Source of the DNA: a virus | Taxonomy: Duplodnaviria > Heunggongvirae > Uroviricota > Caudoviricetes | Length of the DNA: 64,000 nucleotides | Reading direction: 5' to 3' (one strand) | Virus record (IMG/VR): IMGVR_UViG_2939521961_000018 | Part shown: positions 48,001 through 51,000 of the stretch, in pieces | How the letters are laid out: each line of letters opens with the position of its first letter | Numbering within the stretch: position 1 is the first letter of the stretch | Made by a program: the position numbers

Positions 48001-51000
48001 ATTTGCTGATTAATCCAGCGACGCTCCTCTATGCGGTCGCAGGTGAGGTATGCGTTCATGGCGGAACTCCTGATTCCGGTTAATGCATTAAATTAATTTG
48101 TCGGGAAAGCTGACATACAGGGCAGTTACATTCTTCCTCCTGCTCCTTAGCGAAGAAATATGCAGCGGCCTGTAATGCGATATCTTCTGGATGTTCCGCG
48201 ATAAACATAACATTGCCTTCCGTATCAATAACAGAAATAGCCTCATCAGACAGGACGACAAAATAGGCGATGATTTTATCATCCATAAAAACTTCTCCCA
48301 TTATCGTTCCTGCTGGAGTTACGACGCTTTTTACATTGATATTTATTTTTTGATTGAGCATGATATTTCCCTTCAGGCTGGTGAGATTAACGGTTGGCCT
48401 TTATTGTTCAGGTAAACTTCTATTGCATCTGAGATAATGCGAATTTTTTCAATCAGTGAATGTGCGTAAAGTGCATTATTAACGTTCGCTGACGCCATGT
48501 AATAACGCCCGTTGTAAAGAATTGCTGTGCCGGGTTTAACGTCCTCGCGAGAAACTAATGCGGTTCCGTAGTGAGGTTTGAGCATGACAAATCCTCCGGT
48601 TAATTAATCCAGATATTTAATTTAATCCCCGATATGTGGTCGGGGATGGGGTTAATTAAAGATTTACGTTGAAACCAAAGCGGGAAGACTTTTCTGATGT
48701 ACGGGAAATATCCAGCAATTTACGGCGCATTTCTTCCGTCAGATGCTTGAAGGCGTTAAATTCGGCGACAGCGGCGTCAACGTTATAGCCTTTGCTGTGT
48801 AGCTCATTGAGGATGCGCATAGTTGGGCTTGGCATATCGAAGAGCACGGAAGCATCAAGGCTGATAACCTTGCGATCAACATAGTTCATCGTGGCGTAGG
48901 GGTGATGCTCTGAAAACCACGATAAAGGGAAATTGATATTCATCGCAGGAGAAGACAGGGCCAGTTGTTTCTGTTCCCATAGTTGTTTTTCCATGCGATC
49001 GAATTCAGCAATGTAGGCTTCCTTGAATGCAGCTGCTTTTTTGCCTGTGAAGCCCATCACCAGAAAAACGAAGCCGTTTTTGGTGATTTGATAGGCGTTA
49101 TAGGTATTGCCTCTGTGTTCGAATTTAACCCGCGAAAAGTTGCTGGTTAAAAAACATTCAGAGCATTCGAGGGATTCTATTTTCTGAACAACATGGTGAT
49201 GCTGCTTGTCAAAGAACTCAGCGATCGCAATAGACGTAGTGACAGCGCGTCCGTTTTCGATGGTTACGTCAGGGTGAGAAAGGGCAGGGATAGTAGCCAT
49301 AATAGCAGCCTCGATAGTCAGTTTAAATAACTCACCACCGGAGGTAGCAATCTCATGGGTGGTGAGACGTGCAGGGTTGCTACAACCGGTGACTACCGAA
49401 ACCGGCCAGCCTTGTGGCTGCCCCGCACGCCCCACCATAATTTGAATGTGGCTGTGCATTACGCATAAAAAAACCGCCTGAGCGCGGTTATGCGCAGTAG
49501 TCATCATCGGGGTAGCAATCCCGACACCCGTTTTATAAGGTGTTCGCCAAATATAGCCCCCGACATCACACGCAGTCAATACCGTCCTTTCTCAGAAACG
49601 CTTTGGCGGTGCCGCCTGCACCCCAAAACATTCCCTGTATTGGTCAGCGCCAACTTCCTGCCAGTGTTGCCCGTTCTCACGCCGTTCTCGCTCTCGCGCG
49701 GGGATACTCTCTCATCGACCGGATCGCACCCGATGATACAGCACGTTTACGTGTAGGGGTCTAAACAGGTCATTGACGCTGTAAAGCTCCAGATTGTTAA
49801 AGAGCATTTTGCGGCGGGTTAAGTCGCGCCGTACGACTGATTTATGTAGCCCTGTGTAAGGGCGCGATGTTTCTGGCTTGGGTAAAATATAATAAGTGCA
49901 ACTGATCATAGTCAATAGCGAGACTAATAATCTGGTTTAATTTTAATCTATGTGGTTGATTTTTAGATTAATTTATTTATGTAAAAAATATAAGCGAGGA
50001 TAATGAAGATGGAGGATGCGTAAAGAAAAACCGGCGCGGGGGCCGGTTACTCTGTGTGAGATTTGGCGTGAGGGAAAAGCCCCCTGATAACACCAAGAAA
50101 AGCAGCGAACAGATTCAGAGTTGAAGCAGCGGTCACCGCAATGAGCACTTCATCTGAAAAGATTTCTTTCCCCATGACGCGGCCTGTTGCAGACAACAAC
50201 AAAACACTAGCCCACCAGTAAAGCCCATACTTGGCAACTTTATAGGCTTTTTCTGCAAATTTTTCTCTTAATTCCCTGTTAGATTTTGCATCTGCTGCGC
50301 GCTGGGCGTTTAAATTATCTCCATCTGATGAAGATTCTGTTGTTGGTGGCGTATCTTCAAGGCTTGATATATCTGTGCCTGGAAATGCTGCTCCGTTCGG
50401 GATTGTGATTTTTTCAAGTTCAGACATCAATGAATGTGGTTTGCCATATCAGTATGAAGAATTGGGCCACCATCAGGTTGACCTTTACTCCAGGCCGCGT
50501 TTGGTGCATGGGTCATGTTAGAAAGCTCGGTTCCGCTGTAGCTGCCGTATACCTCAACAATTCTGTCGATCAGCCTCCTGGTTTCTGTGTCACCCTTCTG
50601 TATTGTCGGTGTGATTCGTTTCCATTCCCCATCTGAATCAATGATGATGCTGATCATTTCCTGTATTTCATCGCCCCCATATTTCTTTAACATGTGGTAC
50701 AGGTGCGGTATTACAGGCCCGTAAGGCCAGCGCGCAAACAGATCGTCGAATAATGGCCTTCCGTTGAATAGTTTCAGATGCCACGACTGAGTATAGAACA
50801 ACAATTTTTGTAGCTTCATCGGAGTTAAATCTTTGATTTCTCCCCGTTTAGCCTTATCAATAAAGGCGTTAGCTACGGCAGCAGCTGAATATGCCATGCT
50901 CTACTCCGCATTTTGCGAAATTAAATGTATCACCGGAGAGAATACAACAAAAAGCAAATTAGCAAAACTGATAGAGAAAGTCGGAAGCAAAAAAACCAAG

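Follow-up and report, generated by a model that had tools for sequence, protein, structure and literature searches.

The DUF4065 domain was named 'Panacea' by Kurata et al. (2022, PNAS; PMC8832971), who validated nine toxin-antitoxin (TA) pairs made up of a Panacea antitoxin, PanA, and a toxin, PanT. Transmembrane (TM) helices are predicted in three of the validated toxins, including PanT(Esc. col.) of Shiga toxin-producing Escherichia coli (STEC) O31, which belongs to toxin cluster T3 (toxin WP_000019185.1, antitoxin WP_000287252.1; PMC8832971). Expression of PanT(Esc. col.) is toxic and shuts down transcription, translation and replication alike, and its PanA neutralises it. The toxin causes membrane depolarisation and entry of SYTOX Green, which the authors interpreted as the formation of large pores, and neutralisation by the tested PanAs needs neither ClpXP nor Lon (PMC8832971). 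Here we describe a panA-panT locus (panAT) in a 64,000-nucleotide stretch of DNA (the window) from the Caudoviricetes virus record IMGVR_UViG_2939521961_000018, in which a stand-alone Panacea gene is followed by the gene for a membrane protein of cluster T3.

The way in which a Panacea protein recognizes a membrane toxin was addressed by Ernits et al. (2023; PMC10440598), who predicted, and tested by mutation, contacts between Panacea and the disordered N-terminus and pre-TM helix of a Bartonella membrane PanT. The substitutions Y56A and H120E abolish neutralisation by the Bartonella Panacea. This same work proposed Panacea as a sensor domain and reported that RosmerTA, a phage-borne membrane-depolarising system, defends against coliphages (PMC10440598).

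A sequence-only reading of the window had predicted an antitoxin-first TA or abortive-infection module with a membrane effector at this locus, and had left open whether the pairing was already described. Membership of the T3 family supports the TA prediction and, at the same time, removes the novelty. The PanA-PanT pairing has been described and validated in a family member (PMC8832971), and RefSeq already labels the first gene. Both open reading frames (ORFs) were found where they had been placed, on the minus strand (50897..50427 and 50430/50427..50047).

The assignment of the window PanT to T3 rests on two strains in the published list for this cluster, Tatumella morbirosei LMG 23360 (WP_038018854.1, spacing +8) and Phaseolibacter flectens ATCC 12775 (spacing -4) (PMC8832971). 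A scan with an alignment of the window's PanT family recovered loci in both strains, and the measured spacings, +8 in Tatumella and -4 in Phaseolibacter, equal the values in the published table. The Tatumella protein proved to be WP_038018854.1 by exact-sequence look-up and matches the family profile with E=2.3e-38. In tblastn comparisons, the window protein is 39% identical to the Tatumella protein (E=3e-27), and the identity to the P. flectens T3 locus is 50%. Moreover, the charged N-terminus and the two C-terminal hydrophobic segments (residues 67-85 and 94-118) match the description of T3 (PMC8832971). Because of the homology to WP_038018854.1 and the agreement in strain and spacing, the window PanT is filed in T3. 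By these sequence comparisons it belongs to that cluster, and its link to the tested STEC O31 toxin runs through cluster membership rather than through a pairwise alignment. Membership of cluster T1 was considered and rejected; when 50,697 phage records were searched by tblastn with the window protein, only Stx2 phages matched. A blastn search of 5,426 E. coli genomes, with the window and four T3 loci as queries, recovered five other T3 lineages and no WP_000019185.1, and a tblastn search of plasmids for a toxin of the WP_000019185.1 type yielded no match.

The STEC O31 pair and the window pair share the T3 cluster (through WP_038018854.1), the order of antitoxin then toxin, and a stand-alone Panacea protein. 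Both toxins begin with a charged N-terminal part and end in a hydrophobic TM region, and the depolarising, large-pore mechanism is assigned by analogy to the window toxin as well. The two pairs differ in that they carry other alleles and are separated by a 22-nt gap in STEC O31 but joined by a 4-nt overlap here. In addition, the STEC O31 pair was scored 'NotPhage', whereas the window pair lies in the immunity-proximal region of a Shiga toxin (Stx) 2a prophage.

PanA is a Panacea protein. The DUF4065 assignment had been made without database searches, with a profile search named as its check, and this search gives a match to Pfam PF13274 (SocA_Panacea) with E=6.3e-22 and 79.1 bits (cut-off 25.7), covering profile positions 1-112 of 113. 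PanA also matches phrog_1281 (E=4e-41), and a 100%-identical copy is labelled 'Panacea domain-containing protein' in RefSeq, where the alleles of the window pair carry the accessions WP_096858767 and WP_096858766. The GPV motif, a conserved Panacea motif in strand beta2 whose importance has been described (PMC8832971), is present as G60-P61-V62 within WPYGPVIP, encoded at 50712-50720. This motif is invariant in all eight sequences of an alignment of PanAs whose partners belong to this toxin family, and it is kept in partner PanAs elsewhere that are 54-75% identical to the window PanA.

The start of panA is preceded by a Shine-Dalgarno (SD) sequence, GGAG, at 50904-50907, 6 nt 5' of the ATG. 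The panA promoter is a weak candidate, an extended -10 element read by eye (TGATACATT, 50924-50932). Conservation with phage Lyz12581Vzw and other sister phages ends at approximately 51036, about 140 bp upstream of panA. This break indicates that panAT behaves as one cassette together with its upstream region and terminator.

PanT matches phrog_33656, a family of unassigned function, over its full length (E=3.7e-84). This was its sole family match, as searches of Pfam, NCBIfam and PADLOC yielded none. The predicted length of 127 amino acids holds if translation begins at a TTG (50430) one codon upstream, but the protein has 126 residues from the ATG that RefSeq uses in a 100%-identical E. coli copy. 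The claimed overlap of panA stop and panT start can be read directly in the DNA as TGATG, and no SD-like motif lies within the 20 nt 5' of the panT ATG. Because the overlap is combined with the lack of an SD sequence before the panT start, translational coupling of the two genes is plausible. The claimed terminator was likewise recovered by a terminator scan, as a hairpin (50048..50029) with a 7-bp stem, five G-C pairs and a 6-nt loop that begins inside the panT stop codon.

The predicted protein anatomy, an acidic N-terminus followed by two C-terminal TM helices, agrees with the charge (net -6 in residues 1-45) and hydropathy of PanT and with its structural model. The AlphaFold2 model, built on a 22-sequence alignment, shows residues 1-33 as disordered, followed by a long helix at 34-84, a short loop, and a second helix at 92-117, with pLDDT values of 70-81 in the hairpin. 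On the positive-inside rule, both ends of PanT would face the cytoplasm, a proposed topology that the modelled hairpin and the charge distribution fit. In the family alignment, the N-terminus varies in length and sequence, whereas the segment from RELRE..FA.KAYKVAK through LNLFAAFLGVIRGLFP is highly conserved. The latter is the invariant C-terminal motif of the family, and it is intact in the window copy. No solved structure was found by sequence for either PanA or PanT.

An exhaustive profile search identified 670 representatives of the PanT family at E<=1e-3, and this number indicates that the panAT ORFs are real genes rather than chance ORFs. The profile search was informative for distant members, to which a word-indexed alignment search added few. 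Gene neighbourhoods were sampled at four places from exact-protein look-up and in several E. coli lineages found by DNA similarity, as well as at 18 species-representative loci chosen solely by membrane-protein patterns and on 58 viral contigs. In each of the 34 bacterial or annotated loci and each of the 57 viral loci with a full TM ORF, the gene directly 5' of this ORF on the same strand encodes a Panacea protein, and the two genes overlap or lie within about 20 nt of each other. The linked pair spans Enterobacterales, Pseudomonas and Vreelandella, a conserved neighbourhood as defined by a putative toxin gene no more than 100 nt away in at least two species. Its contexts are otherwise unrelated, and include lambdoid prophages, P2-like prophages (beside dinI and tail-fibre genes), an ssrA island and an integrative and conjugative element (ICE). 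In a separate observation, the ICE of E. coli RM11911 (3125-3898) carries a Panacea gene annotated as 257 amino acids, with no separate membrane-toxin ORF detected. This gene may have arisen from the pair by fusion or frameshift.

Taken with the published functions, these findings make it highly probable that panAT is a type II module whose toxin is a two-helix inner-membrane pore-former, held in the cytoplasm by PanA and synthesized under overlap coupling. Toxicity, pore formation, protease-independent neutralisation and the site of PanA contact are carried over to the window pair by analogy with published relatives. In the mechanism we propose, PanT would enter the inner membrane as a hairpin of two helices, with both termini in the cytoplasm, basic flanks and an acidic connecting loop, and would then oligomerise into pores that collapse the membrane potential. 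PanA would bind the N-terminus and the conserved membrane-adjacent helix of PanT (residues ~34-66, RELREKFAEKAYKVAK), and this binding would keep the toxin in the cytoplasm and prevent it from inserting or assembling. The TGATG overlap, with no ribosome-binding site of its own for panT, would tie PanT synthesis to that of PanA, so that toxin is not made in excess. The pair would be carried as an accessory cassette ('moron') by the Stx2a prophage.

The Bartonella choladocola (apis) PanT(D11/T12)-PanA pair offers a parallel for this proposed contact, in that a stand-alone Panacea protein again neutralises a small depolarising membrane toxin, one similar in composition to the window PanT. The predicted contact of the Bartonella toxin, comprising the disordered N-terminus and pre-TM helix, matches the conserved 34-66 helix of the window PanT. 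The PanA lineage of the window keeps an aromatic Y59 next to GPV and also H130, residues that we infer to correspond to Bartonella Y56 and H120. However, the Bartonella toxin cluster differs from T3, and Kurata et al. considered them only possibly homologous (PMC8832971).

Several observations weigh against the pore-former reading. The window ortholog itself is known from sequence only, and its similarity to WP_000019185.1 is indirect, by way of the shared cluster. TM1 is the weaker helix, with a Kyte-Doolittle value below 1.0 over 19 residues, and the pLDDT of the PanT model is 61 overall. Among published pairs, pull-down complexes were obtained for five soluble (non-membrane) PanTs only, and eight PanTs were non-toxic in the E. 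coli screen, including the T1 partners from E. coli MOD1 and Salmonella phage Emek, both of which are phage settings (PMC8832971). Lastly, a promoter scan found no minus-strand promoter of at least 9/12 upstream of panA.

The non-toxic PanTs of that screen also favour another explanation, namely that the locus is an inert or decaying remnant with intact ORFs but a toxin inactive in E. coli. The window copy does differ by a few substitutions from the common Stx-phage allele; synonymous versus non-synonymous changes against the sister allele are 8/6 and 4/4, counts too small to interpret. Nevertheless, both ORFs are intact, LNLFAAFLGVIRGLFP and the GPV motif of PanA are preserved, and the exact PanA and PanT sequences are present on approximately 1000 contigs. 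We consider a remnant decidedly improbable.

Caulobacter SocA-SocB, a type VI system whose antitoxin has the same Pfam domain, raises a further alternative in which PanA would deliver its toxin to a protease instead of sequestering it. RefSeq names a sister copy of the antitoxin 'SocA family protein', and PanA gives a partial match to the NCBIfam SocA_antitoxin model NF047745 (E=1e-24). At 87.1 bits, however, this match falls well short of the equivalog cut-off (190). SocA acts as a ClpXP adaptor, and its toxin blocks replication, whereas the window partner is a membrane protein and not a SocB-type replication inhibitor. The tested PanAs, as described above, require neither ClpXP nor Lon to neutralise their toxins. 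A SocA-like mode of action is very unlikely.

The element that hosts the pair is an argW-integrated Stx2a prophage of E. coli. The region matches a prophage of E. coli JNEC-KY204 at 99.5-100% identity, and Stx2a-converting phages of O145, O111 and O103 strains, among them Escherichia phage Lyz12581Vzw, at 95-97%. The Stx prophage starts at a tRNA-Arg gene (32541-32612), and stx2 lies near 58.9 kb. Read from right to left, the order is a cro-like gene, cI, a small signal-peptide ORF, hicB/hicA on the opposite strand, panA, panT and the terminator, followed by an isrK-like small RNA (sRNA), a C4 antisense RNA, a Rha/antirepressor gene, kil, gam, recT and exo. The placement of the pair between the early-left genes and cI stands broadly, and in other E. 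coli lambdoid prophages a diverged copy (65% DNA identity) lies directly between the repressor and kil. In the window, hicAB and the signal-peptide ORF intervene before cI, and the immediate left neighbour is the C4/isrK and Rha-antirepressor module rather than the recombination genes directly.

In sister Stx2a phages, a BsuBI/PstI-type restriction-modification (R-M) system is present instead of hicAB (7189-9608 in one sister-phage locus). Because this replacement occurs, the site holding panAT plus either hicAB or the R-M genes is, by sequence comparison, a variable and swap-prone accessory slot near cI and the immunity genes. Such a slot is one reason to regard prophage-borne abortive infection as the likeliest role of panAT, ahead of an addiction-like role in retaining the cassette. 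In the former, a protein of a superinfecting phage would bind or displace the PanA sensor, and the PanT so freed would depolarise the membrane and cause death or arrest of the cell before progeny are released. This proposal extends the TA reading and does not exclude it. It is favoured by the company that panAT keeps, which includes the hicAB and R-M systems of this slot, the repressor and kil genes that flank other copies, and the AbiTii and DUF4145 genes that adjoin the Pantoea locus, and also by the published proposal of Panacea as a sensor and the RosmerTA precedent (PMC10440598). Against it, the literature searched contained no phage assay of any membrane PanAT, and neither protein has a match in PADLOC-DB v2 at E<=1. 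Expression in the lysogen is, moreover, an assumption, because no convincing panA promoter, cI operators or leftward operator (oL) were found. On balance, abortive infection is a possible role that we advance tentatively.

For addiction, a stable toxin and a less stable antitoxin would penalise loss of the cassette or prophage without any defence against phages. The classic TA architecture, the movement of the unit among prophages, ICE and genomic islands, and the long-established role of plasmid-borne TA systems (PMC8832971) are all consistent with this explanation. However, the relative stability of PanA and PanT is only presumed, neutralisation proceeds independently of Lon and ClpXP, and a single-copy chromosomal prophage gains little from post-segregational killing. 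Retention by addiction appears unlikely.

The proposed defence role invites comparison with lambda RexA-RexB, also a prophage two-gene module near the repressor with a depolarising effector, in a comparable slot between repressor and leftward-early genes. RexB forms a larger channel that spans the membrane several times, and RexA is not known to belong to the Panacea proteins. Pfam, PHROG and PADLOC revealed no sequence link between these proteins and panAT. The pair cannot be co-transcribed with cI, since the oppositely oriented hicAB operon separates them. Searches for cI operators and for oL and the leftward promoter (pL), using repeats and a k-mer comparison with the oR region, gave chance-level similarities only. 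Because oL and pL were not located, the 'rexAB position' of panAT is an analogy and not a demonstrated equivalence.

A canonical LexA (SOS) box, CTG-N10-CAG with good flanking bases, occurs upstream of panA in 9 of approximately 15 bacterial lineages and on 45 of 57 viral contigs, with 13-18 of 20 consensus matches, against a background of about 0.03 boxes of this kind per 250 nt of the DNA examined. Enterobacterial copies have the box at about -33 to -45 or -85 to -95, and the Pseudomonas types have it at -133 to -174; in the E. coli SF-468 prophage copy it lies 33 nt upstream of panA. Several panAT copies also adjoin dinI. In the window, there is no LexA box within 250 nt upstream of panA (50898-51147) and none with at least 14 of 20 matches in the entire 64 kb, and a viral relative 97% identical to the window copy likewise has none upstream. 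The boxes in most relatives, their absence here and the dinI neighbours together suggest that the T3 panAT family is usually under SOS control and that the Stx2a-phage copy has been rewired. Neither LexA nor SOS is mentioned in PMC8832971 or PMC10440598, and a full-text search for DUF4065 with LexA returned nothing relevant. As a separate observation, a second upstream palindrome, TTTACC-N5-GGTAAA (within GTACTAAAGTTTACC..GGTAAAA), is present in several enterobacterial copies and in none of the window sequence. This palindrome differs from the LexA box and is a possible operator site for a further regulator.

The SOS boxes bear on the possible roles in more than one way. They count against abortive infection, since they point to control by DNA damage in most relatives instead of constitutive surveillance. 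At the same time, they would switch the genes on together with prophage induction, as expected if panAT served the lytic cycle of the Stx phage itself after induction, supplying a membrane protein that acts like a holin or in host shutoff, together with the inhibitor of that protein. A small two-TM protein does resemble a class II holin, but the only holin-family match of PanT, to phrog_881 in PHROG, is faint and not significant (E=0.2), and Pfam gave none. The pair is far from the lysis cassette, occurs also in ICE and non-phage islands, and is always formed with PanA and never with an endolysin, while the window copy has no SOS box at all. We find a lytic function most improbable. Another scenario is that the Stx2a copy lost its LexA box and was rewired for expression from the resident prophage, with PanA acting as phage sensor and PanT as abortive effector, yielding a RexAB-like device built from unrelated parts within a defence hotspot. 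This more elaborate version of the abortive-infection proposal seems rather doubtful.

SOS control would also align the family with TisB/IstR-1, which, like HokB, involves a small inner-membrane toxin that forms pores or depolarises the membrane. The tisB gene carries a LexA box, as do most T3 panAT relatives, whereas the window copy does not. TisB and HokB further differ from PanT in having an antisense RNA as antitoxin instead of a protein, and PanT is approximately four times larger with a long cytoplasmic N-terminus. The metabolic-labelling profile of HokB is that of the membrane PanTs (PMC8832971).

Table 1. Coordinates of panAT and of neighbouring features in the 64,000-nucleotide window.
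Feature	Position	Strand	Evidence or description
panA, stand-alone Panacea (DUF4065) antitoxin gene, 156 aa	50427..50897	-	Stop included; ORF, Pfam, PHROG, RefSeq
panT (T3 family), membrane toxin gene, 126 aa	50047..50427	-	Stop included; ORF, PHROG, hydropathy, AlphaFold2, T3 link
TGATG stop/start overlap of panA and panT	50425..50429	-	Stop TGA 50429-50427, start ATG 50427-50425, one base shared
Intrinsic-terminator-like hairpin, AACCGGCCCCCGCGCCGGTT + TTTCTTT	50019..50048	-	Terminator scan
panA upstream region	50898..51036	-	Shared with sister Stx2a phages
PanT acidic disordered N-terminus, aa 1-45	50293-50427		Net charge -6, 8 D/E
PanT basic membrane-adjacent helix, aa 46-66	50230-50292		Charge +3
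PanT TM1, aa 67-85	50173-50229		Moderately hydrophobic
PanT loop, aa 86-93	50149-50172		Acidic, GKEIFSDE
PanT TM2, aa 94-118	50074-50148		Strongly hydrophobic, Kyte-Doolittle 1.96
hicAB toxin-antitoxin operon (context only)	51051..51704	+	Divergent from panA; RefSeq annotation of 99.9%-identical stretch
hicAB sigma-70 promoter	51051-51079	+	Perfect, 12/12 match in promoter scan
hicA	51109-51363	+
hicB	51360-51704	+
Small ORF directly 3' of cI	51791-51961	-	Signal-peptide-like N-terminus, Gly/Ser/Arg-rich tail
cI prophage repressor, LexA/S24 family	52040..52759	-	ORF and RefSeq annotation of near-identical JNEC-KY204 prophage
cro-like gene	52865-53104	+	ORF and RefSeq annotation of near-identical JNEC-KY204 prophage
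isrK-like Hfq-binding sRNA	49467-49543	-
C4 antisense RNA	49355-49442	-

Some neighbouring features of the cassette (Table 1) merit brief description. The hicAB promoter is overlapped by a palindrome, CACTGTAACTAATTATAGTTACATGCAGTG, that is a possible HicB operator. The small ORF next to cI is named 'transmembrane anchored protein' in RefSeq, and a hairpin after it (51767-51786), shared with hicB, could end transcription both ways. To the left of the pair, the isrK-like and C4 RNAs are supported by matches at the Rfam gathering threshold in 49355..49543 (RF01394, 57.2 bits; RF01695, 78.8 bits) and sit upstream of the Rha/antirepressor ORF. This layout is like the c4-ant arrangement of P1 immI, with a promoter TTGACT-18-TATATT at 49579-49550. 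Given these RNAs and this promoter, the 307-amino-acid ORF listed at 48656-49579 is over-extended.

Other observations concern the remainder of the window. Positions 1-32500 show no collinearity with the chromosome of E. coli JNEC-KY204 to the left of argW, and the stretch 4632-5204 shares 86% identity with the ninG region of the Stx prophage. The non-collinearity and the ninG-like stretch suggest that the first half of the window holds a second lambdoid prophage, or its remnant, in tandem. The ALIL pseudoknot, a frameshift element of the IS3 family, gives equal scores at 17132-17248 (+) and 35650-35766 (-), which indicates two copies of one insertion sequence, and one of these copies lies within the Stx prophage near its integrase end. 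Matches to sRNA-Xcc1 (38537-38622 and 39070-39158, -) fall among the early-left prophage genes. Near the toxin genes, three tRNA genes (58569-58817) lie upstream of stx2A, and a full-length match to the sRNA STnc100 (60225-60426, +) lies just 3' of the stx2 genes.

Many Stx2a phages of O145, O111 and O103 STEC encode a 'hypothetical protein' after the Panacea gene, and these findings allow it to be named as a PanT membrane toxin of the T3 type. The accessory slot near the immunity genes of Stx phages, occupied by panAT and either hicAB or an R-M system, may influence superinfection and prophage stability. The possible defence role and the pattern of SOS boxes are leads, and are the parts of the panAT finding that are worth following. 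If real, the SOS box would tie a membrane toxin with a protein antitoxin to the DNA-damage response, as is the case with TisB, and would provide an experimental handle on the trigger of PanAT, a question that published work has left open.

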